IMG/VR virus record: IMGVR_UViG_3300045131_002929
Coordinates: 82,618-146,617 of that record
Source: a virus
Length of the DNA stretch: 64,000 nucleotides
Strand: one strand, 5' to 3'
A program made the translations under genes and the position numbers. The first letter of the stretch is position 1. Each line of letters opens with the position of its first letter. Below, piece by piece: positions 22,614 to 51,462 of the stretch. The notes below the pieces were generated by a model that was not told the origin of the DNA, did no database searches, and saw only the letters and a program-made list of their open reading frames with translations.

Positions 22614-22620
22614 CAGCCAC

Positions 22621-22650
22621 GGCCGGCGGGCCCGCAGCCGCCGGCCTATT
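22621..22650 (+). terminator. possible intrinsic terminator or stability hairpin
   Basis: GGCCGGCGG/CCGCCGGCC stem with a short TATTT tail. Confidence 0.4.
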
Positions 22651-22668
22651 TCCAAACATGAGGCTTAC

Positions 22669-23868: not shown

Positions 23869-24316
23869 GGGGTTCTTCGACGGGTGGGACGCGGCCAAGG
23901 CGAAGACCAAGGCCGCGGCCACCCTGAGCTACGGCGCGAAGGCGCTGGAGAAGGTCTGGCCGGGCTGCGTGGAGCGCAGGCGGCTGAAGGAAGGGGCCAA
24001 CCCCTTCCAGGAGGCATACCACAAAACAGGCGCCCGCGTGTTCGACGAGATGACGGCGTTCAAGGCGGACGCCAGGATACAAACACTGCTAAAAGGCTTT
24101 TTCAAGTCCGAACTGTGGAAAAAGTTCGCCGAACGGCTTGAAGAATCCAAAGAAGCGGCTATCGTCTTCAACGTCGTCGGCGCCGGCGATTGGGTGGTGC
24201 ACGCCAGGCGGAACTGGCGCAGGCCCGACGCGGGCCGCCCGCTGATCATGTATAGCGGCTCCGAGGGCGGAACCGTGGTGATACAGGAAATGGCTCAACT
24301 CGTCGAAAGGCAGTAG
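23852..24316 (+). CDS. hypothetical protein
   Basis: Overlaps the recA-like stop; codon bias. Confidence 0.6.
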   Translation: MARTPEGFFDGWDAAKAKTKAAATLSYGAKALEKVWPGCVERRRLKEGANPFQEAYHKTGARVFDEMTAFKADARIQTLLKGFFKSELWKKFAERLEESKEAAIVFNVVGAGDWVVHARRNWRRPDAGRPLIMYSGSEGGTVVIQEMAQLVERQ

Positions 24317-24319
24317 ACA

Positions 24320-25153
24320 ATGGGAGAGATCGTAAAAACCGAGCTGGCAGGGACGCAGGATCTGAAATCCGAGGCCGTGGGCAGGGAGACGCTGGAGAAG
24401 CTGCGCGAGATCGCCTCAGGCAGCCACAAGCATGAGAGCTACCAGGCTCTTGTGGAGTACCACAGGCGGCACATGCGCGGCTTCTACCGGAAAGCCATGG
24501 TGGCGCGGTGGGAGCTTGGCCACGACCTGTTGAAGATCAGGAACGGATCCGTGTACGGCGAGAAGACGCTGGAGAAGTTCGTCGAGGACCTGAACGACCC
24601 TTCGTTCTCCACTAAGCTGGCTTACGCCTGCGCCCAGTTCGCCGAGATGTTCTCCCCTGAGGAGCTCTGCGAGACCATGCGCTACGAGCATGTGTACTGG
24701 GGCGTCGTGACCCGGCTCATGCGCGTCAAGGACCGCGAGGACAGGCGCAGGCTGATGAAGGCTCTGGACTCAGGCGAGATACAGGCGTCCAAGCTCGACG
24801 AGGAGCTGCGCCGGATGAAGGATTCCGCGGAGGAGTCCGAAGCGCCGGACGAGGATCTCGGCGATTCGCGCGTGGAGAGCGGCGAGGCCGGCCAGTCGGA
24901 AAACCCGCAGGAGCGGAAGACCGTCACGAAAGGCTTCAGACAGCTCATAGAGCACTGCGCCCTGCTCCGCAAAGCATGCAAGCAGGCCATGAAGGATCTC
25001 CAGAATCTGGACCTGGTGGCGGACAACGACGAGAAGTACGAAGAGGCCGTCGAAGTCATGTGCGACGCCGTGGAGGAAGCCTCCGCCGCCATCGAGCTGC
25101 TCTCGGAGTATAAGACCGAGGCCGCGCGCTACGCCACCCCCTCAAGAAGTTAG
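24320..25153 (+). CDS. DUF1016/YhcG N-terminal-like protein
   Basis: WELG...YGEKTLEKFVEDL...FS...QFA...WGVVTRLMRVKD.EDR pattern, recognised by eye. Confidence 0.5.
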   Translation: MGEIVKTELAGTQDLKSEAVGRETLEKLREIASGSHKHESYQALVEYHRRHMRGFYRKAMVARWELGHDLLKIRNGSVYGEKTLEKFVEDLNDPSFSTKLAYACAQFAEMFSPEELCETMRYEHVYWGVVTRLMRVKDREDRRRLMKALDSGEIQASKLDEELRRMKDSAEESEAPDEDLGDSRVESGEAGQSENPQERKTVTKGFRQLIEHCALLRKACKQAMKDLQNLDLVADNDEKYEEAVEVMCDAVEEASAAIELLSEYKTEAARYATPSRS

Positions 25154-33124: not shown

Positions 33125-34933
33125 ATGCCCTCCAATATATTCACGAACGACCTCAGGCTTACCAGCCCCCATTGGCGCGAGTACGGCTCCCCTTTCTCTA
33201 CATACGCAAGAGCTTTATATCCGACGACTTTAGAAGAAGTTTTTAATTGGTCGGAATTTCTGTGGCTTCATAACGGTTTGTATTCCAAGGCTTTACAAAG
33301 AGCGGTCCGTTATTTCATAACGCAGATCGAGGTCACAGGCGTCCGCGACTACAAGATCCGCCGCAAGTACTCCGACTACCTATGCGACAAGCTCGGGATC
33401 ATGAACATGCTGGCCCAGGTCGGCGACGACCACGTAGCTTACGGCAACGCCTTCGTCTCCATGTTCAAACCTTTCAACCGGAACCTGATCTGCCCGAAAT
33501 GCGGACTGTACCGACCGGCTGAGGTCGTGGACTACAGCTTCACGGGCTTCCAGTTCGTGGCCAAATGCTCCAAGTGCCACGTCAAAGGCCCGCAGGACGT
33601 CAAAGACATCCCGACGTCCACCGACGATCTCAGACTCATCCGCTGGAACCCGCGGTCCATCGAGCTCGAGTACCACTCGCTGTCCGGCGAGAAGCGCTTC
33701 TTCTATGAGCCGCACGCCAAGGTCAAAGGCGCGATCAACAGGGGCGACCGCATCGTGGTTGAGAACACCCCGATGGAGATGCTCGAGGCGGTCAAGAACA
33801 ACCAGAAGTTCCTGTTCAACCGAGGCGAGATCTACCACATGGCCAGCGGCGTGCCCGCGTCCTTCGTCGACGACACCGCCGGCTGGGGCCTGCCGCCCTT
33901 CCTGCCCAACTTCGAGCAGGTGGTGCAGCTGCAGATGCTGACTCGGTTCAACGAGGCCATCATGATGGACTACCTCGTGCCGCTTCGGCTGTTCTCGCCC
34001 GGATCGCGCGGCGGCGAGGCCGGCGACCCGCTGATCAACATCGACACAGGCCGTTTCATGCGGTCCATCGAGAACATGGTCAGGCAGCACCGCAGGGACC
34101 CGACGTCCTACCATTCCGTGCCCTACCCGGTGAACTATCAGGCCATCGGCGGCGAGGCCAAGCAGCTCGCGCCGGTGGAGATGCTCGAATACGCCACCGG
34201 CTCCCTGCTCAGCTCCATGGGCATACCGCAGGAGCTGTACAAGGAGTCGCTGGGCGCGGGCGGGCCGCCGATCGGCCTGCGCATGTTCGAGCGCAGCTGG
34301 ACTGGCTTCGCGTCCGATCTGAACCGCTTTCTGGACTGGGTGACCGGCAAATGCGTGGAGCACCTCATGTGGGAGGACGTCCGCGTGAGGCTCGTCAAGA
34401 CCTCCATCTACGAGGACGACGAGGTCCGCCAGACCAAGCTGAATCTGCTCGGCGCCAACAAAGTCTCCAACACGACGGCCTTCATGGCCTTCAACATCGA
34501 CTATGAGTACGAGGTCGACAAGATCCTCGACGAGCAGGCCATGTTCGACGAGAAGGTGGCGGAGATGCAGAAGAAACAGCAGGACGCGCAGCAGAACATG
34601 CAGATGATGGCGACGCCAGGCCCAGCGCCCGCGGCGGGCGGCCCGCCAGCCCAAGGTGGCGGCCCAGGCGGCGCGGCAGCCCCGGCGGCCCCCTCGCCAG
34701 GCGGTGGCGGCGGCACGCTGGAGGACATGGACATGCAGGCGGACCAGACCGCACAGCAGATCATAGCCATGCCTTCTGGACAAAGGCGCTCCCAGCTGCT
34801 AAACTTAAAGAAGACGAACGACGCGCTGCACGCGCTGGTCGTCTCGAAGATACAAGCCTACGAGAACCAGGCCGGCCAGACCGGCGTCAATATGACCAGG
34901 CAGGGGCAGATCCCTGTGGGGCAGCAACAATAA
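33125..34933 (+). CDS. putative portal protein with Zn-ribbon insertion
   Basis: 602 aa; D...YGNAFV portal-like motif, RWNP..I, GIPQE and a Q/P/G-rich tail; CPKC...CSKC insert. Confidence 0.55.
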   Translation: MPSNIFTNDLRLTSPHWREYGSPFSTYARALYPTTLEEVFNWSEFLWLHNGLYSKALQRAVRYFITQIEVTGVRDYKIRRKYSDYLCDKLGIMNMLAQVGDDHVAYGNAFVSMFKPFNRNLICPKCGLYRPAEVVDYSFTGFQFVAKCSKCHVKGPQDVKDIPTSTDDLRLIRWNPRSIELEYHSLSGEKRFFYEPHAKVKGAINRGDRIVVENTPMEMLEAVKNNQKFLFNRGEIYHMASGVPASFVDDTAGWGLPPFLPNFEQVVQLQMLTRFNEAIMMDYLVPLRLFSPGSRGGEAGDPLINIDTGRFMRSIENMVRQHRRDPTSYHSVPYPVNYQAIGGEAKQLAPVEMLEYATGSLLSSMGIPQELYKESLGAGGPPIGLRMFERSWTGFASDLNRFLDWVTGKCVEHLMWEDVRVRLVKTSIYEDDEVRQTKLNLLGANKVSNTTAFMAFNIDYEYEVDKILDEQAMFDEKVAEMQKKQQDAQQNMQMMATPGPAPAAGGPPAQGGGPGGAAAPAAPSPGGGGGTLEDMDMQADQTAQQIIAMPSGQRRSQLLNLKKTNDALHALVVSKIQAYENQAGQTGVNMTRQGQIPVGQQQ

Positions 34934-35874: not shown

Positions 35875-36795
35875 ATGCCAGACATCCCCAAAGACGAAGC
35901 GGCGCCCTGGTCGCTCAACTCCGCGCTGAACGCCTGGAACGGAGCCACGGGCAACTCGCCCCTCGTGCAGGGCCTGGCCCTCGGGCTGCCCACATACTTC
36001 CTCACCAAATGGCTAGGGCAGAAAGCCGAGTGGGAGTACGCCCAAAGGGCCGCGGAAGCCATCGACGACCCGGAGGAGCGGGCCAAGTTCCTGGCGGACT
36101 CGTACAACGGCAAGGCCTCCGGCAGGCTGGCCGCCATCTTAGGCTCCGGCGTCGGCCTTTCGCCTCTGCTTTTCAACACAGGCAACATCGTCAACTCGCT
36201 GAAAAGCGACAACCCGCTCGGCAACCTGGGCAAATCCGTGCTATCCTACGCGCCGGTCGACAGCTGGAGCTTCGGCGGCTCTAAGGCGCCGGCCGCGCCG
36301 CCTAAGGAAGGGAAGACCCCGGGCATTGAGAAAAATGAGGCTGAGATCGAGAAGCTGGCCGACTACTACATGCGCGACCCGTACCCTACTGAGCGCCGGT
36401 CGGCCTCGGACATGACGCTCGGCAGATCGTTCGTCATGCCGATCATCCGCCCGCCGATGTTCCTGCACGAGCAGGACATCCCGCAGCACAACTCCATGGA
36501 GCTGCTGGCGACCCAGCAGCCGGTGCTCGGCGGCCATCTGACGCACACGCTGACGAACGGGCTGGCCAACGCGGAGCCGGGCGGGTCGGGCATGATCAGC
36601 ACTTCGGACATATTCCACGGCTTGGTCGGCGCCGGCGTGGGCGCCGCGGCCGGCTGGGGCCTGGCCCATGTCATGGGCACCATCTTCGCCCAGCCGCCGG
36701 CTTTGAAGAATAAAATGGCCCAGTACGGGGCCATCGGCGGGGCTATACTAAACTCTGGGCTGGTGCCGAAGGCGGCCGGCTACCTTCTTAAGTAG
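35875..36795 (+). CDS. glycine-zipper putative virion protein
   Basis: IEKLA; GLVGAGVGAAAGWG. Confidence 0.7.
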   Translation: MPDIPKDEAAPWSLNSALNAWNGATGNSPLVQGLALGLPTYFLTKWLGQKAEWEYAQRAAEAIDDPEERAKFLADSYNGKASGRLAAILGSGVGLSPLLFNTGNIVNSLKSDNPLGNLGKSVLSYAPVDSWSFGGSKAPAAPPKEGKTPGIEKNEAEIEKLADYYMRDPYPTERRSASDMTLGRSFVMPIIRPPMFLHEQDIPQHNSMELLATQQPVLGGHLTHTLTNGLANAEPGGSGMISTSDIFHGLVGAGVGAAAGWGLAHVMGTIFAQPPALKNKMAQYGAIGGAILNSGLVPKAAGYLLK

Positions 36796-36866
36796 GCCGG
36801 CTCGGACCGGCCTGCGGGCAATCAACAGACGCGCGTCTCGGCGTGTCGGAAAGGCGGCTGATCGAA

Positions 36867-37097
36867 ATGGCTGACGTGAACGCATTAAACAGAGTGCTGC
36901 TGCCTACTGCGGTGGGCTCGCTGGCGGGGTACGGAGTCGGCTCCATGGACGCGCCGACGTCCGAGGACGTCAAGATCGCGCTTACCGAGCACAGCCGCAA
37001 GCGCATAGAGGAGGCGATGGACTCGCTGGTCAGGACGCGCAGGGTCGAGGAGCTCAAACGAAAGGTGCTAGGCGATGGCCAGACCCTCAGGCTTTGA
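36867..37097 (+). CDS. small glycine-zipper protein
   Basis: AVGSLAGYGVG followed by a charged helix. Confidence 0.6.
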   Translation: MADVNALNRVLLPTAVGSLAGYGVGSMDAPTSEDVKIALTEHSRKRIEEAMDSLVRTRRVEELKRKVLGDGQTLRL

Positions 37098-37398
37098 CGC
37101 CAAGTACGGCGCGCAGTGGTTCGACGGGCTGCCTTTCAAAGGCGCCCCCATGGACATAAAGAAAGGCGACCCCGACGACAAGCAGCCCGTGCTCAAGCGC
37201 GACGTGAAGATAAGGCAGTTCGACACCTCCTCGCCCGAGGATATGGCCGCATGGCAGGGCGTGATGCAGCAGGTGGCCGACGGCCTGTCGGTCGTCTCGT
37301 TCGAGGAGAAGCAGTATGTGCCCGAAACCAAATCCTGGCGGGTATTGGTCAGGTGGTTCGAGGAGTACTACACCAACCCGGAGACACCCCCGAAATGA
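37075..37398 (+). CDS. hypothetical protein
   Basis: Codon bias; coupled overlaps with neighbours. Confidence 0.65.
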   Translation: MARPSGFDAKYGAQWFDGLPFKGAPMDIKKGDPDDKQPVLKRDVKIRQFDTSSPEDMAAWQGVMQQVADGLSVVSFEEKQYVPETKSWRVLVRWFEEYYTNPETPPK

Positions 37399-38270
37399 AT
37401 CCACTCATAGCAGATCAGGTGGCAGGCGTAGGCCAAGGCCTGCTGGACGCCTCCAAAGCGAACAAAGAATATGTCGACAAGGCCATAACGGCCGGCGGGC
37501 TGTCCGCCCTCGCGTCCGTGCTGATGGGCCTCGCCATGCGGCAGGGCAAGAAGAAGCCGGACCAGGGCAAGAAGCTCAGCGAGAGCCTGCAGCTCGGCGA
37601 CCTGTACTCCGATTCGGCCGATCCCGCGGAGGCTATGCGGCGGATATACAAGGCCGGCGGCGAGAAGACCGCCATGGACAAGGCGGACCTGCTGGTCGGC
37701 GGCACCGGGCTGGCCATGGCGTCGGCGGCGCCCGCGGTCATGTTCGCGAACGTCATGAAGCAGCGCAAATCGGAATCCGCGTTGGACGTCTCCAAGAAAA
37801 AGCTGCACGACGCCTTGGCGCGCTACCACCATCTGCTCAAGAAGGAGACGCTGTCGGGCTCCGGGGTCGAGGTGGACGAGCTCAAGGATAAGGCGCACGC
37901 CATAGTCAAAGAGGGGGCCGAGAAGCTGAGCGTGCCGATGGCGACGCTGCTTAGCGGACTCGGAATAGCGGGCGGCGCGGGCGGTTTCAACATAGCGTAC
38001 GACCAGGGCGCCAAACGGACGGAAGGCGCGGTGGCCATGAAGAAGATGCGCGAGGCCATCGAAAAGCAGCAGCGGCTGCAGGGCGCGCCGGCCACGGCGG
38101 ACGTCGGCATGACGCCCGAGGAGATGATAGCCTACGAGGCCCTGCGCAGGGAGCATTCCGGCAAAGGCCGCAAGGCGCGCGTGGCCCAGCCCGCCGCGGA
38201 GGATCAGCGGAGTTCGGTGTCGGCCAGTCCGGACGACCCCGCCTTGAAGGATTTATTGGCGTCCGTCTAA
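37395..38270 (+). CDS. putative virion/ejected protein with repeated hydrophobic segments and K-x-A motifs
   Basis: ATG 37395 overlaps the upstream TGA; GEKTA motif; three Gly-rich hydrophobic helices. Confidence 0.65.
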   Translation: MNPLIADQVAGVGQGLLDASKANKEYVDKAITAGGLSALASVLMGLAMRQGKKKPDQGKKLSESLQLGDLYSDSADPAEAMRRIYKAGGEKTAMDKADLLVGGTGLAMASAAPAVMFANVMKQRKSESALDVSKKKLHDALARYHHLLKKETLSGSGVEVDELKDKAHAIVKEGAEKLSVPMATLLSGLGIAGGAGGFNIAYDQGAKRTEGAVAMKKMREAIEKQQRLQGAPATADVGMTPEEMIAYEALRREHSGKGRKARVAQPAAEDQRSSVSASPDDPALKDLLASV

Positions 38271-38285
38271 AATAGGTGCTATGCC

Positions 38286-41200
38286 ATGGCGGAACCCAAG
38301 CAAGAGCTGCCCGGGCTTGTCGGCCTGAACGACTACGACGCCCGCCGCAAGCTCATATTCGACTACGCGCTCGAGGGCGTCAAGACCAAATTCCCGGTGG
38401 AGAACACCCAGGTCAGACTGAAGGTCGACAACCTGGCGTACGACGACGATAAGAATTTCACGCCGATGGACCAGAAAGAGGCGCTGCTCAGCGGCGGCTC
38501 GCTGGGGCGCAAGCTGAAGGGCAACTGGGTTCTCGAGGATCTGAAGACCGGCGAAGTGCTGGGCCGGACCTCCAAGAAGACCATAGCCAACATCCCATGG
38601 CTCACCGACCGCGGAACTTTCATACGCAACGGCTCCGAGTCGAGCATCGTCAACCAGATGCGGCTGGTGCCCGGCGTCTTCGTCAAGAACACGGAGGACG
38701 GCAGGGTGGAGACCCATGTGAACGTCAAGCCCGGCACAGGCCATATGTTCAAAGTGTCGATGGACCCGGCCGATCCAGTGTTCGAGGTGATGGTCAAAGG
38801 CCGTAAGATCAAGATGTACCCGCTGCTCAAGGCGCTGGGGGTGCAGGACGCCGACATGGAGGCCGCGTGGGGCACCGAGATCCTCGACAAGAACCGCAAG
38901 CGCGACGACACGCGGTCGGCGGTGTCCGCCGCGCAGACGTTCGGCGCTTTCCGCAGGATCAACAAAACGGCGGACGAGGCCCCGAAGCCGCCGGCGCCGG
39001 AGCAGCCGGAGCTCGGCATAGAGGACGTGGCCGCCGCCTTTCAGAAGATGGAGCTCGACCCTGAGTCGGTCAGCTCCACTCTCGGCAAACCCTACGCCAA
39101 CGTGTCGCCGGCGCTGCTGCTCGACGCCACGAAGAAGATGATCCTGCTCAACAGGGGCATGGCCGAGGCCGACGACCGCGACTCGCTGGAATTCCAGCGG
39201 GTACACATGGCGCATGACTTCATCAAGGAGCGGATCGTCAAGGATTCCGGCGGCATGATCTCCAAGATGTTGTGGAAGGCCACCGCGAAGCGGTCGCCGG
39301 ACGCCATACCGGGCGGTGCGCTGGACAAGCATGTCGACGCCCTCTTCAACTCCGGTGGGCTCACCCAGTACGTCGAGGAGATCAACCCGCTGGATCCCTA
39401 CGACCAGGCGCAGCGGCTGACTCGGCTCGGCGAGGGCGCGCTGGGCGACGCCGTGCCCGACGAGGCGCGCGCAGTGCAGCCCACCTTCCGCGGCTACGTG
39501 GATCCGATACGCAGCCCGCAGAGCTCGGCGGTAGGCCTGGACATGCGCATGGCCCACGGCGTGAAGGTCGGAGCCGACGGCCTGCTGTACAGGGAGATGG
39601 TCAACGCCAAGACGGGCGCCGTGGAGTGGGTCAGCTCGACCAAGGCGGCGCGTTCCGTCATAGGCTTTCCGGAGGCCCTTAAAAGCAAAGACGACTATGT
39701 CCCGGCCACGGTCAAGGCCGAGGGCCTGCAGTATGTGCATAAGGGCACGGTGGACTACGTGATGCGGAGCCCCGGCGACCTTTTCTCGACAATAAGCAAT
39801 CTAGTGCCGATGGTGTCCGGGACGAAAGGCCAGCGGCTGCTCATGGGCGCCAGCTACCACCTGAGCGCGCTGCCGCTGCTGCACCGGGAGGCGCCGCTGG
39901 TCAGATCGGCGCTGCCCGACGGCTCGGATTCGCACAAGGCGCTGGCGCCTTACGCCGGCGTGGTCAGGGCGTCCGAGCCCGGCTTCGTGGAGAGCGTGGG
40001 CAAGGAGTCCATAAAAATCAAAGGCAACGACGGCAAGGTCAAAGAATACCCGCTGTACCACAACTTCCCTTTCGCCCGCAAATCCAGCATGTCCAACTCG
40101 GCGAGCGTGGAGAAGGGCCAGGCCGTCAAGACCGGCGACCTGCTGGCCACGAGCAACTTCTCCGACAAGAAGGGCGAGGTGGCCCTGGGTTTGAATCTGA
40201 GATGCGCGTACATGCCTTACAAAGGCTACCTGCACGAGGACGCCATAGTAGTCTCCGAGTCGGCGGCTAAAAAGCTCACGTCCGAGATGATGACGTCCGT
40301 CAAGATGCGCGACTCCGAGGGCGTGGAGCCTGGCCTGGCTTCGCACATGTCCAGCTTCCCCTCGGCGTTCAACGAGGCGCAGAGGCAGACCATAGGTCCC
40401 GACGGGCTGGTGAAGGTCGGCACCGTCGTCAGGCCGGGCGACCCACTGATCCTGGCCGTGAAGCGGCAGGCGCCGACGGTCGGCTCCATGGGGCGCAGGC
40501 TGACCACCGACCACGCCGTGACATGGGACCACCATGACGCCGGCGTCGTCACGGACTCCCGCAAGACCAAGGAGGGATGGCGCGTGCAGGTACGGGCCAA
40601 CTCCGCCGCGCAGCCGGGCGACAAACTTTGCTATTCGGACGACACCGAGATGCTCACGTCGCGGGGATGGAAGCGCGTCTCCAGCATTGACACTGCCGAC
40701 TATCTGGCTTCCAGGACCGAGGCCGGCGAGCTGGAATACGTGCAGCCGATGGCTATAGTGGACTACGAGTACGAAGGGCCGATGCACCTGGTGGAGACGA
40801 CGCAGGTGTCGCTGATGGTCACGCCCGAGCACAGCCACCTGGCCAAGCGGCGCGGCGCGGACGCTTTCGAGCTCATCCCGGCGGCCGAGCTGTTCGGAAC
40901 CAGATACAGGCTCAAGAAGGACGCCAAATGGAAAGGGTCTTCGCCTGAGTACGTGGACATGCCCGCCTACACGAGAAAAGCAGGCCAGGGCGGCGCGGGC
41001 GAATTGCTCGTGAAGGGCCGCAGGCTGAGTGTGGACGCCTATATGTTCCTACTAGGAGCCTACCTTTCAGAGGGTAACTGCTTCGCCTACGACGGCAACT
41101 ACGGCATAGAGATAACGCAGATCACCGAGCCCAACCGGAGCGACATGCTCGCCAAGCTGAGGGAGTTGGGGATCAAATTCAACGAGGTTAACAATAAGAC

Positions 41201-44200
41201 GAAGGTACGGCTGTACGGGAAGGACCTGGCGCTGCACTTCGAGCAGTTCGGCCGCTCGCACGAGAAGTTCATACCCGACTGGGTCTTCGACTGCGCCAAG
41301 CAGGACCTGGAAACGCTTTATGAGTGGCTGATGTGGGTCGACGGATGCCGCGTATCTACAAGCCACTCGTACTGCACGACATCCGAAAGACTGGCAGGCG
41401 ACATCCAGCGGCTCTGCCTGCACATAGGCCTGGCCGGCACGTTGAAGCGCAGAGACGCGACAGTGGGCGAGATCAAAGGTAAAACTTATGCTCTCAGGCC
41501 GCGGTACGACATCTCGATATACAGACAGAAGCTGGAGCCCGAGATCAACCACGGGCACTGCAAGCGCCAGAAAGGCCAGCGCGAGGAGTGGGCGGCCTAC
41601 TCGGGCCGCGTGTACTGCCCATCACTGCCGAGAAACCACACCGTGTATGTGCGGCGCAACGGCAAGACCTGCTGGTCGGGCAACTGCGGCAGGCACGGAA
41701 ATAAAGGTGTCATAGGGCTCATACTCCCGGACGAGCAGATGCCGAAGGACGCGCAAGGCAGGCCGCTGGAGGTTCTGCTCAACCCCTACGGCGTATCCGG
41801 CCGGACGAATTCCGCGCAGATGATAGAGGCCGCGCTGGGCAAGGTCGCGGCCAAGACGGGCAGGCCCTACGTCATGCCGCTGTTCGGCGACGATCCGGAC
41901 GGCTCGCTCATCAGTTTCGCCAAGGCCGAGCTGGCCAAGGCCGGCCTGCGGGACAAGGAGGACGTGTTCGACCCTTCGCTGAACAAGAATTTGAAAGACG
42001 TGTTCGTCGGCAGCCTTTACATGCACAAACTGCAGCATACGGCCGAGGCCAAGGCTGGCGGGCGGTCGTTCGGCGGATACACCCAGGACAAGCTGCCTTC
42101 CACTGGCGGGCATGACGGTGGTAAGCGTATTGGTAGTATGGAATGCGGGGCAATGTTCTCGCATGGCGCCATGGAGAATCTGAAGGACATGAAGCTGATC
42201 AAAGGCCAGGAGAACTACGACTACTGGCGCGACGTCAAGCTAGGCCGGACGCCGGTCATGCCGCGCGGCAGCTTCCTGTATGACAAATTCAGGGCGCAGA
42301 TGCGGTCGGCCGGCATTAACCTGGAGGACCGCGGCGCGAAGACGCATATATTCGCGATGACGAACGACCAGGCCAAAGAGCTTACGCAGGGCCGCGAGGT
42401 CCAGAACACGGACACCTACGACGCCAAGAAGTTCACGCCGATAAAAGGCGGGATGTTCGACGAGGCGCTGACCGGCGGCGCTGAAGGCAATCTGTTCGCC
42501 ATGGTCAAGCTGGACGAGCCGGTTCTGAACCCGATCATGGAGGATTCGGTACGGCGCATACTCGGCGTCACCATCAAGGATCTGGAGGCGCTGGCCTCCG
42601 GCGACAAGCCCTACAAGGACATGTACGGCGGCAAAGCCTTGAAAGCCAGGCTCGCGGACGTCAATCTGGACATGGAGCTGCTGAAGGCCCGCAACGCTGC
42701 GAAAGGCTCTTCCGGCGCCACGCGCGACGCGGCCGTCAAGAAGATAAGAGCCATAATGTCGATGAAGGAGCATGGCGTTCGGCCGCAGGATTTCATGATG
42801 GACGCCGTGCCCGTGCTGCCGCCGTCGTTCCGGCCGATAACCACGATGGACGGCGAGAACAAGGCCGCCGACGCCAACTACATGTACCGCGAGCTCATGT
42901 TCGCCAGGAACGACCTGCGCGACGCGGCCGCCATACTGCCCGACAAGGATCTGACCGACGCCCGCCGCAAGGTGATAGGGTCGTACAAGTCGCTCGTGGG
43001 CCTGCAGGACACCGACAACGCGGAGCTGTCCGACAAGAAGGTCGGCGGCATACTGGCCACCGTCTTCGGCAAGAGCTCGCCCAAAGTCGGCCAATTCCAC
43101 CGGCGCATGATAGGCATGTCGCAGGATCTCACCACCCGCGCGCCGATCATACCGGATCCGACGCTCCGGGTGGACCAGGTCGGCCTGCCTTTCAACCGCG
43201 CGTGGGAGCTCTACGAGCCTTTCGTCGTCAGGCGGCTCGTGCGCGGCGGCATGCCGGCCACGCAGGCCGCGAAGGCCGTGGCCGACCGCACGGGCCAGGC
43301 CGAGGCCGCCCTGCAGGAATGCGTGCGCGAGCGGCCGGTCATGATAAACAGGGCGCCCACCATGCACAAGCACAGCATAGTGGGCATGTGGCCGCTGCTG
43401 GTCAAGGGCGACTCCATGAAGGTGCCCAACGGAATCCTGGCCCCTATGGGGGCTGACTATGACGGCAACTGCGCCGACTTTAACACAGAACTTAAATTAA
43501 GATTATCAAAGTCCGCGCTTGAGACCTTCGCCGGTCTAGGGTACATTGTCGGTGTCGATGGGACACTAACAAAGGAGACCTGCATGCAGACGGCGGACAC
43601 AAAGGTGGCGATCAAGGCCGAAGGCGTGGTAGCTACCACGCGTATAGGGGAATTCCCCCGCGCTGGCGTACCTGGCAAGGACAGGAACGGGGCGGACGTG
43701 TACGAGGTTCCGGCAGGCGTCGAGGTTCTGACTCTCGACCCGGCTACGCTGAATCCTATATTCTCCGAGGTGACCACGTTCACGGAGGAGAAAGACTGCC
43801 CGTGCGTCGAAGTCGCAACCGACACGCAGTGCGTCATAGTCAGCGACAACGAGTCGCTGTGCGTGTTCGACCACGCCTCGGGCGCGCTCTCGAAGATGGC
43901 GCCGAAGTCTTCCGTGGGCATGTTCTCGCCTTCCGTGCGGGCCATGACCACCGGCGAGGACAAGCACTCCAGGGATCTAGGGTGGTGGGTAGGCGCCTTC
44001 GTGTCGGACGGATGGGTGTCTGGAAATTATGTCGGATACGCCAAGTCCGAGAAGGTTAAAAGGGACGAGTTCGTGCGCATCACCAGGGAGCTGGTGCACG
44101 ACAACTTCAACAGCCGAGAGCACGCCGCCTCCAAGGGCGTCGATAAACTCGGCGACAGCGTTAAACTGCATTTGAACGGCCGCGAGCTGGTCGACGCCGT

Positions 44201-45203
44201 GCGTGGCATGGGTTTCGTGGAGGACGGGCCGGATAGACAGGCTCTCCGCAAGCGCATACCGCCGAAAATGATCTTCGAGGGTTCGGACGAGTTCGCCTGG
44301 GGGTTGTTGTCCGGATTGCTGGACGGGGACGGTACGGTGGCCGTCAACATGCACACCGGCAAGCCCAGGTACACGCTGCGCTTCAGCACCTCGAGCAAGA
44401 GCCTGGTGGAGGGGGTGCGCGCGCTTTGCTGGCGCCTCGGGCTGCGCTGCTGCGTCAGCACCACCCCGCCCAGGGGGCATAGCAAGGAGGCGTACGTCGT
44501 GCTTCCCTCCGTGGTCGACGTACGGCCGCACGCCGGCAAATTAAGCTGCGTCGGGGCTTTAGAGCGCGAGAGGGTGGCAGGCCTGGCGGCGGCCACACTG
44601 CGCCAGGACATCAGGGACTACATACCGCTCACGCTCGATGAGGCGAAGAACTTGAAAATCAGGGCAAAGGATCTGGCCGAGAAGGCGGTGGTGTCGGCGC
44701 TTGATAAAAGGAAAGCCACGCCTTGGTTGAACAGGCAGTATCTAGCCAGGTTGATCGCCGGCGACTTCGCGCTTGAGAAGGCCTTCGAGGCCCGCATGAA
44801 TCCGCGGATACGCTGGGAGCACATAGAACGAGTGACAGACGCCGGCCGACGGGACGTGTACGACTTCGGCGTTCCCGGCTCCAAGGTGTTCGCCGTCGAC
44901 AAGGGCCTGATCATCTGGGACACGCTCACCATCCATGTGCCAGTGTCTGACCTGGCCGTCAAAGAGACCGTGCGCAAGATGATGCCGAACAGGATGCTGC
45001 TGTCCGGGCGCGATTTCAAGCTCACGTACAAGACAGGCCACGAGTACGTGCACGGGGCCTGGCTGGCCACGAAGCCGCCGAAGGAAGGCAAGGCCGTCGA
45101 GTTCGACACCGCCGCCGACGCGAAGGCGGCTTTCCGCGACGGCAAGATAGATGTGGACACGCCTATAAGAATTCGAAGCAGGGACATAGGGGGTGCCCGG
45201 TGA
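38286..45203 (+). CDS. phage multisubunit-type RNA polymerase, beta fused to the N-terminal half of beta', with two inteins
   Basis: Beta motifs GTFIRNG, RLLMGA, GYLHEDAI, GDKL|CGRHGNKGV, LLNPYGV, YMHKLQH, GGKRIGSME; beta' motifs VPVLPPSFRP, MINRAPTMH, GADYDGN|T, IHVPVS. Confidence 0.93.
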   Translation: MAEPKQELPGLVGLNDYDARRKLIFDYALEGVKTKFPVENTQVRLKVDNLAYDDDKNFTPMDQKEALLSGGSLGRKLKGNWVLEDLKTGEVLGRTSKKTIANIPWLTDRGTFIRNGSESSIVNQMRLVPGVFVKNTEDGRVETHVNVKPGTGHMFKVSMDPADPVFEVMVKGRKIKMYPLLKALGVQDADMEAAWGTEILDKNRKRDDTRSAVSAAQTFGAFRRINKTADEAPKPPAPEQPELGIEDVAAAFQKMELDPESVSSTLGKPYANVSPALLLDATKKMILLNRGMAEADDRDSLEFQRVHMAHDFIKERIVKDSGGMISKMLWKATAKRSPDAIPGGALDKHVDALFNSGGLTQYVEEINPLDPYDQAQRLTRLGEGALGDAVPDEARAVQPTFRGYVDPIRSPQSSAVGLDMRMAHGVKVGADGLLYREMVNAKTGAVEWVSSTKAARSVIGFPEALKSKDDYVPATVKAEGLQYVHKGTVDYVMRSPGDLFSTISNLVPMVSGTKGQRLLMGASYHLSALPLLHREAPLVRSALPDGSDSHKALAPYAGVVRASEPGFVESVGKESIKIKGNDGKVKEYPLYHNFPFARKSSMSNSASVEKGQAVKTGDLLATSNFSDKKGEVALGLNLRCAYMPYKGYLHEDAIVVSESAAKKLTSEMMTSVKMRDSEGVEPGLASHMSSFPSAFNEAQRQTIGPDGLVKVGTVVRPGDPLILAVKRQAPTVGSMGRRLTTDHAVTWDHHDAGVVTDSRKTKEGWRVQVRANSAAQPGDKLCYSDDTEMLTSRGWKRVSSIDTADYLASRTEAGELEYVQPMAIVDYEYEGPMHLVETTQVSLMVTPEHSHLAKRRGADAFELIPAAELFGTRYRLKKDAKWKGSSPEYVDMPAYTRKAGQGGAGELLVKGRRLSVDAYMFLLGAYLSEGNCFAYDGNYGIEITQITEPNRSDMLAKLRELGIKFNEVNNKTKVRLYGKDLALHFEQFGRSHEKFIPDWVFDCAKQDLETLYEWLMWVDGCRVSTSHSYCTTSERLAGDIQRLCLHIGLAGTLKRRDATVGEIKGKTYALRPRYDISIYRQKLEPEINHGHCKRQKGQREEWAAYSGRVYCPSLPRNHTVYVRRNGKTCWSGNCGRHGNKGVIGLILPDEQMPKDAQGRPLEVLLNPYGVSGRTNSAQMIEAALGKVAAKTGRPYVMPLFGDDPDGSLISFAKAELAKAGLRDKEDVFDPSLNKNLKDVFVGSLYMHKLQHTAEAKAGGRSFGGYTQDKLPSTGGHDGGKRIGSMECGAMFSHGAMENLKDMKLIKGQENYDYWRDVKLGRTPVMPRGSFLYDKFRAQMRSAGINLEDRGAKTHIFAMTNDQAKELTQGREVQNTDTYDAKKFTPIKGGMFDEALTGGAEGNLFAMVKLDEPVLNPIMEDSVRRILGVTIKDLEALASGDKPYKDMYGGKALKARLADVNLDMELLKARNAAKGSSGATRDAAVKKIRAIMSMKEHGVRPQDFMMDAVPVLPPSFRPITTMDGENKAADANYMYRELMFARNDLRDAAAILPDKDLTDARRKVIGSYKSLVGLQDTDNAELSDKKVGGILATVFGKSSPKVGQFHRRMIGMSQDLTTRAPIIPDPTLRVDQVGLPFNRAWELYEPFVVRRLVRGGMPATQAAKAVADRTGQAEAALQECVRERPVMINRAPTMHKHSIVGMWPLLVKGDSMKVPNGILAPMGADYDGNCADFNTELKLRLSKSALETFAGLGYIVGVDGTLTKETCMQTADTKVAIKAEGVVATTRIGEFPRAGVPGKDRNGADVYEVPAGVEVLTLDPATLNPIFSEVTTFTEEKDCPCVEVATDTQCVIVSDNESLCVFDHASGALSKMAPKSSVGMFSPSVRAMTTGEDKHSRDLGWWVGAFVSDGWVSGNYVGYAKSEKVKRDEFVRITRELVHDNFNSREHAASKGVDKLGDSVKLHLNGRELVDAVRGMGFVEDGPDRQALRKRIPPKMIFEGSDEFAWGLLSGLLDGDGTVAVNMHTGKPRYTLRFSTSSKSLVEGVRALCWRLGLRCCVSTTPPRGHSKEAYVVLPSVVDVRPHAGKLSCVGALERERVAGLAAATLRQDIRDYIPLTLDEAKNLKIRAKDLAEKAVVSALDKRKATPWLNRQYLARLIAGDFALEKAFEARMNPRIRWEHIERVTDAGRRDVYDFGVPGSKVFAVDKGLIIWDTLTIHVPVSDLAVKETVRKMMPNRMLLSGRDFKLTYKTGHEYVHGAWLATKPPKEGKAVEFDTAADAKAAFRDGKIDVDTPIRIRSRDIGGAR
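40629..41684 (+). mobile_element. intein 1 in the RNAP beta GDK..GRHGNKG motif (352 aa, LAGLIDADG)
   Basis: Begins CYSDDTEMLTSRGW; VTPEH; LGAYLSEGN and WLMWVDG; ends VRRNGKTCWSGN with Cys +1. Confidence 0.93.
43470..44921 (+). mobile_element. intein 2 at the RNAP beta' catalytic motif (484 aa, LAGLIDADG, C-terminal Asp)
   Basis: Begins CADFNTEL; VGAFVSDGW and LSGLLDGDG; block F VYDFGVPGSKVFAV; ends IIWD with Thr +1. Confidence 0.88.
43519..43586 (+). promoter_or_regulatory. internal sigma70-like promoter, SD and in-frame ATG inside RNAP intein 2
   Basis: TTGAGA-N17-TACATT (43519-43547), AAGGAG (43572-43577), ATG at 43584 in frame. Confidence 0.6.
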
Positions 45204-46801
45204 GCTCCGAACAGTCGTCGATCATCCATTTCGTGCCGGCCGAGGCCGAGGCCGACGTCAAGTCGAACGGGCTTATGACCGCGCAGGCCCTGTCGGCGGC
45301 CGGCCGGCCGGAGGGCGCGCGCCACCTGGCCAGCTATCTGGCGAAGATGAAGTTCAAGCCGGAGGCCAAAGCGGCCTACGACAAGGCGCTGGCGGGCGTG
45401 GCCGCCCCTACGGAGGATGAAAAGGCCGTGGCGGCCATGAAAGCCGTCCGCGGCGACACGCTGGCCGACTCCGGCGGCGACTGGGTGTATGGGTTCACCA
45501 AGGGGCAGGCGGAGCGCGTCCGCGGCATACTCGCGCGCAACCGCTCCAAGTGGCTGGACGGCAGGGTGCCGTACGAGATAGACCTGGCCGGCCTGAAAGC
45601 GGCGGATCTGCTCATGAAGGCCGAGAACACGGAGGCGCGCCAGATACTCGCCCAGCGCATAAAGGCCAATCGGCTGGCGGGCAGATCGCTGCTGCACGGC
45701 ATAGAGCATCCGCGGATCATGGTCAAGGGCGGCGTGGTGCCGCCTAGATTTCTGAAAAGGATCGAGATGCTCAAAGAGGGCGGCGATACGTTAGAGAAGA
45801 CACCCCAACTCTCAAAATCGGGACATAATGGAATGGACACACCCTTCGACCTGTATCTGACGAAAATGGCGGCGGCGCCACGGGTTAAACCCACGTTCGC
45901 AGCCGGCGGCCTCGGCGCCTCAGTGCCTGCCGAGGTTAAAAAGAAGCTGCTCGGCACGCCCGGCAAGGCGAAGCGGAAAGTCGACTTCGAAGAGCTGGTC
46001 GACAAAGGGGCGGTAGCCGATCCTTTCCGCAAACAGGCCGGGTGGCGTGAAGAGGCGGCCGGGTTGAAGGATGGCGTGGCCGACTGGGTGAAACGCACAT
46101 CCCAATGGGCGCGAGACCCGCTAAGCTTAAAAGCCCTCGCCGCCGCGCCGGGCAGGATACTCAACGACCCCGACGCGATGAAAATGGCGAAGACCGAGAT
46201 AGGGCCTTCTGCGGCGAGCCTCGCAAGGGTGATAGACGACAAGGCCGAGCTTAACAAAAAATGGAAGCCGGCGGTGGACGCGGCGCCCGATACACAACTT
46301 ATCGACAGAGCGCAAAAAGCCTATGCCAATCCAGTAGTCCGCGAGTTCGCGGCCAAGTCCGATCTGGATAAGCTGCGGACAGGCATAGAAGGCATTCCGG
46401 CCGGGTACGGCGCCTATAACACGTACAACCACGCGGCCGGCTGGCTTACTCGGAATTATCCGAACGCGACGGCCGTGCTAGACACCGTAGCGCCTAAATG
46501 GTCACCTAAGGCAAGGGAGTGGGTGGCGGAGCGGACCATCGACAAAGCCAAGGCCGGCGAGGCTCAAATGGCGGCGGCGCTGGACCAGAATAAGGGTAAA
46601 CTGGATATGGCGCAAAACCTGGCGCCTTTCTTCCCCATGTGGGAAGGTTTGAAAGGGGCGGCCGTCGGCGGGGCCAAGCAGCTGTGGGCGGGGGCGCCTG
46701 GATTCATAGAAAAGACGCAGGCCGGCGCGCTGCGCGCCGGCGAGCCGCTGGGCGGAATAGACAGGCGCGCGCTGGCGCCTATGCGAAATCAAGCTAGCTA
46801 A
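45200..46801 (+). CDS. hypothetical protein, possibly two fused genes (internal start at 45833)
   Basis: Internal MDTPFD..LTKMAA resembles the N-terminus of the next gene; FRKQAG motif. Confidence 0.6.
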   Translation: MSSEQSSIIHFVPAEAEADVKSNGLMTAQALSAAGRPEGARHLASYLAKMKFKPEAKAAYDKALAGVAAPTEDEKAVAAMKAVRGDTLADSGGDWVYGFTKGQAERVRGILARNRSKWLDGRVPYEIDLAGLKAADLLMKAENTEARQILAQRIKANRLAGRSLLHGIEHPRIMVKGGVVPPRFLKRIEMLKEGGDTLEKTPQLSKSGHNGMDTPFDLYLTKMAAAPRVKPTFAAGGLGASVPAEVKKKLLGTPGKAKRKVDFEELVDKGAVADPFRKQAGWREEAAGLKDGVADWVKRTSQWARDPLSLKALAAAPGRILNDPDAMKMAKTEIGPSAASLARVIDDKAELNKKWKPAVDAAPDTQLIDRAQKAYANPVVREFAAKSDLDKLRTGIEGIPAGYGAYNTYNHAAGWLTRNYPNATAVLDTVAPKWSPKAREWVAERTIDKAKAGEAQMAAALDQNKGKLDMAQNLAPFFPMWEGLKGAAVGGAKQLWAGAPGFIEKTQAGALRAGEPLGGIDRRALAPMRNQAS

Positions 46802-46814
46802 CGAGGTATTGAAA

Positions 46815-47120
46815 ATGGGAACTCCGTTCGACAATCAGTTGGAAGACATGGCCCGCGAAGGCCTGAGGAAAAGGGCCGAACTGGAAAAGCAGGCCTTATG
46901 GCCCGCGCTCCTGCTTAACGGAATACCGCTGGCTGCGATGCTGTACGGCGGGCTCAAAGGCATAGGCGCGTGGGGCGATCTATGGGGCGGGCTCAAAGGC
47001 ACTCTAGGCGAAGGGTTCAAAAGTCTACAGGGCACGCTGGGCAAGGATAACGCGCCTTTCCTGCACGGAGTGGTCAAACCGCCGCCGGCCGGAACCGCCA
47101 AGCCGGGCACGGTCAAATAG
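46815..47120 (+). CDS. small K-x-A motif protein with hydrophobic Gly-rich segment
   Basis: MGTPFD...LRKRAELEKQA then LWPALLLNGIPLAAMLYGG. Confidence 0.7.
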   Translation: MGTPFDNQLEDMAREGLRKRAELEKQALWPALLLNGIPLAAMLYGGLKGIGAWGDLWGGLKGTLGEGFKSLQGTLGKDNAPFLHGVVKPPPAGTAKPGTVK

Positions 47121-47169: not shown

Positions 47170-47204
47170 AGCCGTTCCGTTTTCGGAACGGCTTTTCTGT
47201 TTTT
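47170..47204 (+). terminator. intrinsic terminator
   Basis: AGCCGTTCCG-TTTT-CGGAACGGCT plus T-rich tail. Confidence 0.8.
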
Positions 47205-48790: not shown

Positions 48791-50083
48791 ATGGATATCA
48801 CGCACGCGCAGCTCAAGTCGTTCATCCCCGCCGGCCGCCGCGCCGGCCAGGCCATCTTCCTCGCCGGCGCCCCGGGCATCGGCAAATCGCAGGCCATCCG
48901 CGAGGAGGCCGTCGCCAGGGCCAAGGAGATCGGCCGCGAGTTCATCGAATGGAACAAGCAGTCATACGAGATGAAGTGCCTGCTCGCGGACGGCGCCGAG
49001 GCCGCCCGCTACTACGTATATGTGGACCTGCGCCTGGGCCAGATGGACCTGGGCCAATTGTTCATACAGGCGCTCAACGACAAAAAATATATGCAGATGA
49101 AATACCTGGACGCCTTCGTGGCCCTGAGCCACAAGGACGTCGAGGGCATGTTGTTTCTGGACGAGTTCAACCTGGCCAGCCGGGTGGTCATGGGGTCGTG
49201 CTACCAGCTGATCCTGGACAAGGGCATCGGCTCGCTGACGCTGGCGCCGGGGGTGCAGATCGTGGCCGCGGGCAACCGCAAGGCCGACATGTGCAACGTG
49301 ACGCAGATGCCGCCGGCGCTAGTCAACCGGATGGCGATGTTCACGCTGGACAAGCCGACCACGTCGGCCTGGATCGACTGGGCCTGCGCCCATTCCATCC
49401 GGCCCGACATCATGAGCTTCCTGCTACAGCACCCGGACCTGCTCACGGCGGAGCCGTCCAAGACCGGGGCCAACGACGCCAGCTTCGCCACGCCGCGCAG
49501 CTGGGAGGCGACCAGCAACATGCTTGACGCCCTGGCCTACGCCAAGGCGGACAAGGATGGCGAGCCGGTCCGGCGCGAGCTGACGATGGACGACGCCATG
49601 CTGGCGGCCGCGTCGCTGGTGGGCGACAGCCACGCCACGATGTTCGCGGCCTTCTGCATGAACACGCAGACGCTGGACGCCGACGCCATCCTGGCCCGGC
49701 CCGAGTCCGTCAACAATGTTGGCCGCCGGCCCGACGGCAGCGTGGACTTTTCCGTAAGGTGGTCCATCGTGGCCGCCGTGGCCGACCGCGTCAAGACGGA
49801 GGCGTCGCGCAAGACGAAGGCCACCGTGGTCCTGAAGCGGGCCGTCCTGGTGGCCAGCGCGATCGAGGAGGGCGAGCTGGCCGTGGAGCTGTGCCGCTTC
49901 CTACGGGTGTGCGGCGGCCTGGAGCCGTTCAAGAACGCGGTGATGAGCCTGGCGCACGGCGTCGGCCCGCAGACGCCCCCGGACTCGCCGGACATACCGG
50001 CCGCGTATAAGGCCGACTTCGCGATCTTCGCCAGGCTCATGCGGCTGGCGAACATACAGGAAATGGCGAAAAACGTGGAGTGA
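48791..50083 (+). CDS. MoxR/dynein-related AAA+ ATPase
   Basis: GAPGIGKS, LFLDEFN, AAGNR, ALVNRM, ATPRSWE. Confidence 0.88.
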   Translation: MDITHAQLKSFIPAGRRAGQAIFLAGAPGIGKSQAIREEAVARAKEIGREFIEWNKQSYEMKCLLADGAEAARYYVYVDLRLGQMDLGQLFIQALNDKKYMQMKYLDAFVALSHKDVEGMLFLDEFNLASRVVMGSCYQLILDKGIGSLTLAPGVQIVAAGNRKADMCNVTQMPPALVNRMAMFTLDKPTTSAWIDWACAHSIRPDIMSFLLQHPDLLTAEPSKTGANDASFATPRSWEATSNMLDALAYAKADKDGEPVRRELTMDDAMLAAASLVGDSHATMFAAFCMNTQTLDADAILARPESVNNVGRRPDGSVDFSVRWSIVAAVADRVKTEASRKTKATVVLKRAVLVASAIEEGELAVELCRFLRVCGGLEPFKNAVMSLAHGVGPQTPPDSPDIPAAYKADFAIFARLMRLANIQEMAKNVE

Positions 50084-51462
50084 CTATGGCCAAAACAAAT
50101 CCGGATAGCTTGGTCAAGTTCGGCGGGCCGCACGCGGACTGGGTGCGGCTCAAGGCGTCGGCGGCCGAGATCATCGTGTTCGCGAAGGCGGCGCTGCTGG
50201 ACAAGCACCCGTTCTTCGGCGGCCTGACCGCGGGCATGCGGGCCGTGGTCGACCCGGGCACGCCCACGATGGGCGTGGCCGCCACGGACACGCTGTATTA
50301 CAACCCCGATTTCGTGCGCAGCCTGTCCGCGCCGGAGGCCGTGGGCGTCATGGCCCACGAGGTCATGCACGTGGCGCTGAAGCACGTGCTGCGCGCGCCG
50401 AAGATGGACCGGACGTGGAACATATCCGCGGACCTGGTGATCAACGCCATGCTGCTGCATGTCGGATTCAAGCTGCCGGCGGGCGGCGTGCTGCCGGACG
50501 GCGACGACAAGTACGCGTTCACGGCGGACCCGGCCAAGTGCGCCGCCCACGTGTTCCCCGACTGGGCCGGCTTCGAGCTCGCGCAGGGCGCGGCCGGCGT
50601 GACGATATCGAACTGCCGCGCCCGCCACATGGAGGAGGTGCACCGGCTGTTTACGGCCGTGTGCCGCGACGACCCGGACCAGCGCGGCGATGGCGACGGC
50701 AAGGCGGGCGAAGGCGAGGGCAAGGGCGACGGCGACCTGCCGGGCCGGCCCATCGACTCGCATGACTGGCGGCCGCCAGCCGACGAGGCCGAGCATGCCA
50801 AGGCGGAGCGGGCCGTCAACATGCGGGTGGCGCAGGCCGTGGACGCCGCCAAGCGCAAGGGCAGCATGCCCGGCGACTTGGAGCTCATGGTGACCGCCCT
50901 GCTGGAGCCCAAGGTGCGCTGGCAGGACGTGCTGCGCAACTACATGACGGCGGCGCTGTCCGACGAGCAGACGTGGGCCCGGCCGGGGCGGAGCTCGTTC
51001 GGGCTGGGCATGTACATGCCGGGCAAGGCCCGCGACGGCGGCGTCGAGTGCGTGATCCACATCGACACCAGCGGCTCGTGCTTCCAGCAGGGCCCGGAGT
51101 TCCTGTCGGAGGTCGTCGGCATCATGCGCGACGCGCAGGCCACCGGCCACCTGCTAATGTGCGACGCGGCCATCGCCGGGGAGTGGGACCTTGAGAGCCT
51201 GGACGCGGCCTTCGCGATGCCCAGCATCAAGGGCGGCGGCGGGACCAGCCACAAGCCGGTCGTGGACTGGATCCTGGAGCGGGCGCCGGACTGCAAGCTG
51301 CTGGTCACGCTGACCGACGGCTGCAGCGACATGCCCACGACGCTGCCGCTGCTGGGCCGCCATACGAGCGTGATCATCGCGCTGCCGGTCGACTGCGTGG
51401 GCACGGCCCCGCGGCTGGACCATCTCGGCACGGTGCTGCCCATTGAGTCCGACGCGTGCTGA
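50080..51462 (+). CDS. DUF2201-type metallopeptidase plus vWA domain protein
   Basis: AHEVMHV zincin motif, WNISADLVIN, MIDAS IDTSGS, GGGGTS, LTDG. Confidence 0.85.
   Translation: MTMAKTNPDSLVKFGGPHADWVRLKASAAEIIVFAKAALLDKHPFFGGLTAGMRAVVDPGTPTMGVAATDTLYYNPDFVRSLSAPEAVGVMAHEVMHVALKHVLRAPKMDRTWNISADLVINAMLLHVGFKLPAGGVLPDGDDKYAFTADPAKCAAHVFPDWAGFELAQGAAGVTISNCRARHMEEVHRLFTAVCRDDPDQRGDGDGKAGEGEGKGDGDLPGRPIDSHDWRPPADEAEHAKAERAVNMRVAQAVDAAKRKGSMPGDLELMVTALLEPKVRWQDVLRNYMTAALSDEQTWARPGRSSFGLGMYMPGKARDGGVECVIHIDTSGSCFQQGPEFLSEVVGIMRDAQATGHLLMCDAAIAGEWDLESLDAAFAMPSIKGGGGTSHKPVVDWILERAPDCKLLVTLTDGCSDMPTTLPLLGRHTSVIIALPVDCVGTAPRLDHLGTVLPIESDAC

Follow-up and report, generated by a model that had tools for sequence, protein, structure and literature searches.

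The stretch of DNA analyzed here (the window, 64 kb) corresponds to bases 82618-146617 of the virus record IMGVR_UViG_3300045131_002929, which is linear, 146,617 bp long and approximately 79% complete. On the plus strand of the window (38286-45203), it contains a gene for an RNA polymerase (RNAP) in which the β subunit is directly continued by the front third of β′ and which ends shortly behind the catalytic loop. The gene raises the question of whether it belongs to a functional enzyme and, if so, where the remaining part of β′ is encoded. Reading frame, domains, intein boundaries, a second chain, conserved chain ends and orthology to Salmonella phage Arash could be read directly from the sequences. 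They make it very probable that the gene specifies the larger component, a spliced fused chain of 1469 residues, of an Arash-type two-chain multisubunit RNAP that is assembled, produced late, packaged and injected.

Organization of the fused gene

The precursor gene consists of one uninterrupted frame of 2305 codons from ATG to TGA, and the Pfam domains of its product agree with an earlier note on this DNA, according to which β motifs run into motifs of the β′ N-terminus without a stop codon. Rpb2_2, Rpb2_3, Rpb2_6 and Rpb2_7 were found within the first 1307 residues, followed by Rpb1_1 and Rpb1_2 at residues 1478-1728 and by a LAGLIDADG domain at residues 2006-2069. The GC content at third codon positions (GC3) is 0.85, like that of the neighboring open reading frames (ORFs). 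Of the 2305 residues, 836 belong to two inteins, whose removal leaves 1469.

For a detailed mapping, Salmonella RpoB and RpoC, whose lengths are identical to those of the Escherichia coli proteins, were used as references via a family profile of relatives. The N-terminal part of β (residues 1-781; 38286-40628) contains Rpb2_2, Rpb2_3 and the first half of Rpb2_6, is aligned to RpoB 111-904 and ends with GDKL. It is followed by intein 1 (residues 782-1133, 352 residues; 40629-41684), which harbors a LAGLIDADG_3 domain and is not present in Arash gp206. Removal of this intein rejoins the CGRHGNKG motif to GDKL; the match to Rpb2_6 (PF00562, E-value 1e-42) represents the double-psi β-barrel (DPBB) of β with its GxxGxKG lysine motif. 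The C-terminal part of β (residues 1134 to approximately 1351; 41685-42338), comprising Rpb2_6 and Rpb2_7, reaches the equivalent of RpoB residue 1340 of 1342 in an hmmalign alignment to Salmonella RpoB. Thus, β is complete, its last stretch FRAQMRSAGINLEDR being aligned with RpoB 1326-1340 and extending to about residue 1349 of the fused chain. Compared to E. coli, it is devoid of roughly RpoB 225-420 and 905-1048.

There is almost no linker between the two subunits. Only three to five residues past the end of β, the stretch beginning with IFAMTNDQAKEL is aligned with RpoC 22-33, and from residue 1355 on, the chain is β′-like. The β′ part up to the Mg loop (residues ~1352-1728; 42339-43469) accordingly starts at about RpoC residue 22; further on, the stretch ending with PIKGGMFDEALTGG is aligned with RpoC ~52-64. 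The RpoC zinc ribbon (~65-100; C70/C72/C85/C88) is replaced in the region of residues 1398-1403 by the four residues AEGN, located between GGMFDEALTGG and LFAMVKLDEP. Neither the fused chain nor the consensus of 40 relatives contains a cysteine at this site, in line with the earlier suspicion that the Zn-finger cysteines of β′ are missing. Farther downstream lie the motifs NRAPT (residue 1688) and ADYDGN (residues 1723-1728), the latter aligned to RpoC 459-464 with Asn on D464. Intein 2 (residues 1729-2212, 484 residues; 43470-44921) is inserted in the Mg-binding loop; its boundaries were taken from intein-free alleles, and matches to LAGLIDADG_3 and Hom_end as well as an AlphaFold model identify it as an intein. 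The last 93 residues of the fused chain (TLTIHVPVS..., residues 2213-2305; 44922-45200) end at about RpoC 551 and are followed by the TGA stop codon at 45201-45203. The distance of some 93 residues between catalytic motif and chain end given in the earlier note is thus true when counted after intein 2.

The best matches among solved structures were bacterial β (E-value 1e-113) and bacterial β′ (1e-86), while a phmmer search of the isolated junction segment (residues ~1280-1480) against the sequences of the PDB yielded no match. With spliced lengths of 1469 and 606 residues for the fused chain and the second chain described below, compared to 2749 residues in E. coli, the description of the enzyme as compact and bacterial-like stands.

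The remaining part of β′ is encoded elsewhere in the record

Within the window, Rpb1_5 (PF04998), which covers the region of the bridge helix and trigger loop, did not match anywhere, in agreement with the earlier note. A search of the whole record revealed a single site at 22293-23996 on the minus strand, outside the window. It belongs to a gene of 999 codons (record 21534-24533, minus strand), approximately 96 kb upstream of the fused gene, and this gene is the separately encoded C-terminal part of β′ (β′-C) that had been postulated. The first 210 residues of its product were aligned with residues 664-873 of Mycobacterium tuberculosis β′, up to the bridge helix (GARKGLIDLQMATPDAGYL). On RpoC, β′-C covers residues 720-942 and 1189-1284, of which 796-942 and 1189-1284 correspond to the part behind a third intein. 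The trigger loop (AEPMTQAVISSKHTGG) is present, sequence insertion 3 (SI3) is absent, and the second zinc site retains four cysteines (DDC...TC...VC..KC). Without intein 3, β′-C comprises 606 residues and is exactly as long as Arash gp216; the two proteins are aligned from residue 1 on. Stand-alone β′-C proteins of ~606-665 residues, all starting with M..TTxGR, occur in more than 390 clusters, and many of them share contigs with fused chains. No second copy of β or of the β′ N-terminal part was detectable in the record, and neither α (PF01000, PF01193) nor ω (PF01192) gave a match there.

In the alignment, the codon preceding the TGA of the fused gene coincides with the C-terminal residues of Arash gp206 and of the other family members; the same end position was found in Arash gp206 and 40 intein-free homologues. 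The stop at 45203 is therefore genuine and the normal end of the family. On RpoC, the end of the fused chain falls at about residue 551 and the start of β′-C at about residue 587; in cyanobacterial RpoC2, residue 53 is the counterpart of β′-C residue 73. Among solved structures, the β′ N-terminal part matched the cyanobacterial γ subunit best (8h3v_E, E-value 5e-36). In phiKZ-type virion and non-virion enzymes, β′ is also cut after the DPBB, at the cyanobacterial position (PMC7598289). For these reasons, the cut in β′ is, as judged from the alignments, located in a known place, give or take ~20 residues, and what differs is the whole and fused β. Contrary to what the earlier note assumed, the split point is thus not wholly peculiar to this enzyme: the cut falls into the same segment behind the DPBB as the cyanobacterial and phiKZ-type cuts, ~20 residues upstream of the cyanobacterial one.

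Inteins of the RNAP genes

Intein 1 starts with CYSDDTE, ends with WSGN and is followed by Cys (+1); it separates GDKL from (C)GRHGNKG of the β barrel. This site is uninterrupted in Arash gp206 (GDKV-TGLHGNKG) and in the relatives P0006 and P0007. An intein end consisting of Gly-Asn has precedents (PMC1635734). Intein 3 (residues 211-603 of β′-C; CLHGDTL...AIVSN, +1 Ser) is inserted in the bridge helix. Both inteins show Cys1, a C-terminal Asn and Cys or Ser at +1 (C...GN|C; C...SN|S), and since they end with Gly-Asn and Ser-Asn, respectively, they lack the penultimate His. Intein 2 starts with CADFNTE and ends with IIWD within the DxDGD Mg-binding loop, with Asn at -1 and Thr at +1; it possesses Cys1 and Thr+1 but Asp as last residue. 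Approximately 55 intein-free homologues read DxDGD at the Mg loop, most often followed by T..HVP.

LAGLIDADG_3 was detected in all three inteins, Hom_end additionally in intein 2, and Hint and Hom_end_hint in intein 3. The AlphaFold model of intein 2 (predicted local distance difference test score 80) matched the endonuclease-bearing inteins TliVMA, PI-PfuI, PhoVMA and PI-SceI with E-values of 8e-20 to 1e-13. Intein 3 has a GC3 of only 0.62 compared to 0.85 in the exteins, which suggests that it was recently acquired, whereas the two inteins of the window (0.79-0.82) seem to be nearly ameliorated. As the inteins reside in the lysine motif of β, the Mg loop and the bridge helix, i.e., the three most critical motifs, the activity of the enzyme should strictly depend on splicing. 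A fourth intein of the record was found in the large terminase gene (908 residues; window 6178-8904, minus strand), at residues ~54-402, with matches to Intein_splicing, Hint and LAGLIDADG_3.

The third Asp of the Mg loop

The third catalytic Asp of the Mg loop is encoded as Asn (ADYDGN, AAC at 43467-43469), so that the loop, as encoded, does not contain three Asp residues. This exchange is the only catalytic difference among the invariant positions. The junction of the spliced fused chain would read GADYDG[N/D]TLTIHVPVSDLAVK. An Asn at -1 (DxDG-N|C) occurs in nearly all of the ~115 cluster representatives or family members showing this N-junction and in 98% of 87 aligned inteins of this active-site type, for which the search pattern admitted N, D or E only. 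Only D|C (one case), E|C (one case) and D|SC (two cases) deviate. Every visible end of the active-site inteins has the form [W/Y/F/Q/R/M]-D|T or -D|S, and both Cys1 and the terminal Asp are fixed. In the 87 aligned members, block B reads S-x-N-E-S-L and the penultimate residue is W or Y. A conserved His is not present in their splicing blocks, neither in block B (TxxH) nor at the penultimate position.

Three options are conceivable: either the enzyme tolerates Asn at a supposedly invariant position, or the Asn is converted later on, or the splicing chemistry is unusual. Non-canonical splicing by which the active-site intein would provide the third metal position with Asp, via conversion of the -1 Asn or via an offset junction, is in our opinion rather unlikely. 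Offset boundaries (excision of N-C...W, leaving G-D) were considered and dismissed, as no support for them was found, and the canonical boundaries agree with the register of blocks A and G as well as with the rare allele P0263 (DFDGD|C...YD|T). Should the Asp nevertheless be delivered by the intein, protein splicing would be an obligatory step completing the catalytic triad. The alternative, a multisubunit RNAP working with DxDGN, would be nearly as unexpected. The arrangement poses a directly testable question on either intein chemistry or metal binding of RNAPs. A published report on an intein in NADFDGD was not found.

Some relatives show other arrangements at this site. A second intein type (P0014, P0040, P0063, P0068, P0070) keeps DxDGD, starts with x-Q and ends with S-N|T; as its first residue is variable and Cys1 is lacking, there is no obvious N-terminal nucleophile. 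In 28 relatives (P0018, P0027, P0035, P0057, P0073 and others), the fused chain stops 21-49 residues past DxDG[D/N], and separate ORFs of 480-560 residues (P0126, P0135, P0138 and others) start with the remaining intein followed by a C-extein of ~90 residues. According to their sequences, these truncated chains and separate ORFs have the appearance of genes broken in two whose products are joined by split inteins, the N-terminal intein piece being very short.

Gene neighborhood and relation to the virion

A portal protein gene (33125-34933, plus strand), whose product is 27% identical to the Arash portal gp204 (E-value 1e-67), lies 3.3 kb upstream of the fused gene. From the portal gene to position 47120, all ORFs are located on the plus strand and separated by small gaps. 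The region immediately in front of the RNAP start (36795-38286) is ambiguous, with three overlapping frames of 107, 384 and 191 residues that differ in GC3. A promoter-like match at 38244-38273 was not above chance (5 matches compared to 3.0 ± 1.7 expected). Downstream, an ORF for 533 residues (45200-46801, plus strand) without family match or similarity to RNAPs begins with a GTG that overlaps the RNAP stop (GTGA). A strong terminator-like hairpin on the plus strand (47170-47193), a pattern match with a 10-bp stem and a subsequent T run, may end the transcription unit that holds the RNAP gene. PHROGs and Pfam did not annotate the flanking ORFs except for two genes further downstream, an ATPase gene (48791-50083) and a gene for a DUF2201 metallopeptidase/VWA-like protein (50080-51462, plus strand), a few kb past the RNAP block.

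Outside the window, the β′-C gene lies next to genes whose products are homologous to gp218 and gp222, two structural proteins of Arash. Another ORF outside the window, sigma-like and 262 residues long (record 72076-72864, plus strand), is 28% identical to Arash gp10; Sigma70_r3 matched at the cut-off, Sigma70_r4 only below the threshold and Sigma70_r2 not at all. In purified Arash virions, gp206 and gp216 rank with the most abundant proteins; gp206 gave the most spectra (3516) of any protein, and the sigma factor gp10 was present as well (PMC10585845). Because the orthologues occur in virions, packaging of the RNAP described here is a reasonable inference.

Proposed enzyme and alternative explanations

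We propose that the precursor of 2305 residues is translated and that its two LAGLIDADG inteins are excised. The resulting chain of 1469 residues would consist of the whole β joined head-to-tail with β′ ~22-551 (E. coli numbering), the latter contributing the clamp's N-terminal part without zinc ribbon, the DPBB and the Mg loop. Excision of intein 3 would shorten β′-C, the second chain, to 606 residues, and this chain would supply the bridge helix, the second zinc site and a trigger loop devoid of SI3. Both spliced chains would assemble into the catalytic core; a sigma-like protein is also encoded by the phage. By analogy with Arash, the enzyme would be a late product like those of the structural genes, and after packaging into the virion and injection it would transcribe early genes. 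Splicing, assembly, catalysis and packaging are the steps that we infer in this scheme, and some points weigh against it. Mature-enzyme activity is not assured, since the codon for the third metal-binding Asp specifies Asn, and DYDGN-T would result from canonical splicing. Likewise, splicing of the active-site intein is unproven because this intein lacks the usual histidines and ends with Asp. A second RNAP set or an α-like subunit could be located in the missing part of the genome, and could have been missed as the record is ~79% complete. Moreover, the Arash authors themselves point out that virion preparations may contain abundant enzymes through co-purification (PMC10585845).

The earlier note had named a frameshift or an assembly error at 45203, concealing a continuing β′, as a possible reason for the early chain end. 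The chance of this is next to nil. The C-terminus is conserved across the family, its end being shared by Arash gp206 and the 40 intein-free homologues, which argues for a true stop and led us to discard a frameshift; the next ORF shows no similarity to RNAPs, and β′-C, whose N-terminus is conserved, occurs as a separate protein in the more than 390 clusters and is also encoded elsewhere on the same contig. Hardly more credible is a decaying gene that is full of selfish elements and has lost a catalytic Asp. The Asn at the third Asp position and the presence of three inteins in two genes would fit such a decay. Nevertheless, there are neither stop codons nor frameshifts across 2305 and 999 codons, and of the positions that are invariant or near-invariant in the 40 intein-free relatives, the exteins retain 90 of 94 and 149 of 159, respectively, indicative of purifying selection on the fused chain. 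In addition, the same Asn goes along with the active-site intein in ~100 diverged phages, in which Cys1 and the last Asp are fixed, and GC3 amounts to 0.79-0.88 throughout, matching the rest of the genome.

Two further alternatives accept a functional gene. An incomplete phage core might borrow α, ω or sigma of the host for assembly or initiation, resulting in a hybrid enzyme. The lack of α and ω homologues in the record and a sequence that is much closer to bacterial RNAPs than phiKZ-type enzymes are would be compatible with this idea. On the other hand, the cores of phiKZ and AR9 function without α or ω (PMC7598289), the β-β′ fusion itself may substitute for the α assembly platform, and the phage has its own sigma-like gene, so that we regard a hybrid enzyme as improbable. 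Somewhat more weight, albeit still clearly less than to a packaged enzyme, has to be given to a real two-chain RNAP that is not packaged but acts intracellularly as a non-virion enzyme, its position among structural genes reflecting timing only. A packaging signal or propeptide was not identified, the co-purification raised by the Arash authors may apply, and as only one RNAP set is visible, the middle and late genes would have to be transcribed by the same enzyme as well. However, it is gp206 that ranks first in the virion spectra of Arash, accompanied by gp216 and gp10, and Arash and this phage share the link to portal and head genes. Thus, a packaged Arash-type two-chain RNAP is the explanation we favor.

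Comparison with known RNA polymerases

The closest known system is the RNAP of Arash (gp206 with 1525 residues, gp216 with 606 residues and the sigma factor gp10; OQ632216, PMC10585845), which shows the same two-chain layout and the same chain ends, and homologues of this type exist in the Vibrio phages D69, D148 and D181. Identities to Arash-type homologues are 29-32% for the fused chain and ~25% for β′-C. Arash also has its portal gene just upstream, β′-C beside head genes, and a sigma-like gene. Contrary to the genes described here, those of Arash are devoid of inteins, encode the Mg loop ADYDGD instead of ADYDGN, and are separated by ~5 kb, whereas the distance in this phage is ~96 kb, with the two genes on opposite strands. 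In the Arash paper, the genes are labeled β and β′ and the fusion is not described (PMC10585845). More than 700 metagenomic homologues of the fused chain share the layout, with a base length of ~1450-1490 residues. Judging by these sequences, the two-chain layout is common to Arash and hundreds of uncultured phages, to which the window contributes a case with three inteins in its RNAP genes and a β′-C gene located far away. We did not find a published description of this fused-and-split layout or of Mg-loop inteins.

The RNAPs of the phiKZ/AR9 type are likewise two-barrel enzymes of phages without α and ω, with a β′ cut after the DPBB and one set that is packaged into the virion (PMC7598289). 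They differ in that their β is divided into two or three pieces and never fused to β′, in that they occur as two sets, and in that no sigma factor is known, while here β is entire and fused, only a single set was found and a sigma-like ORF is present. In tblastn searches, phiKZ-type sequences were too remote to appear, whereas bacterial rpoBC was found at 1e-27. The mReC phages (Weinheimer and Aylward 2020, PMC7481178) and Rhizobium phage RHph_Y65 are also large tailed phages with a bacterial-like multisubunit RNAP, but they possess separate full-length genes for β (~1361-1563 residues) and β′ (~1006-1127 residues). Membership in the published mReC clade was ruled out by this layout, since its supplementary table contains separate β and β′ ORFs. 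Still another phage layout is the multi-piece RNAP of Ralstonia phage RP13.

Cyanobacteria and plastids divide β′ into γ (RpoC1) and RpoC2 in the same segment behind the DPBB. Compared to cyanobacteria, β′-C of the phage starts ~20 residues earlier, and cyanobacterial β is encoded by a separate gene. Natural β-β′ fusions are present in Helicobacter and Wolbachia, in which the C-terminus of β is directly joined to the N-terminus of β′ in one polypeptide. These fusions contain a full-length β′, and α, ω and the zinc ribbon are kept. With regard to the inteins, no published case was found of a DxDGD Mg-loop intein combining Asn at -1 with a C-terminal Asp. Otherwise, the RNAP inteins known so far (Mja rPol A′/A″, Nph rPol A″ and those of eukaryotic RPA2, RPB2 and RPC2) resemble those of the phage, as they are LAGLIDADG inteins residing in the most conserved motifs near the active site, where splicing is required before assembly (PMC1635734).

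The lineage bears on virion-delivered transcription outside the phiKZ group. Because Arash and the Vibrio phages are in culture, the lineage makes a minimal RNAP of the bacterial type tractable for structural studies and for studies on α-free assembly. Although the phage core is reduced by ~25%, has neither the N-terminal zinc ribbon nor SI3, and α and ω are undetectable, it can still be aligned residue by residue to bacterial RNAP. While cellular RNAPs all hold β and β′ on an α2-ω platform, this lineage apparently relies on a two-chain core with a different partition.

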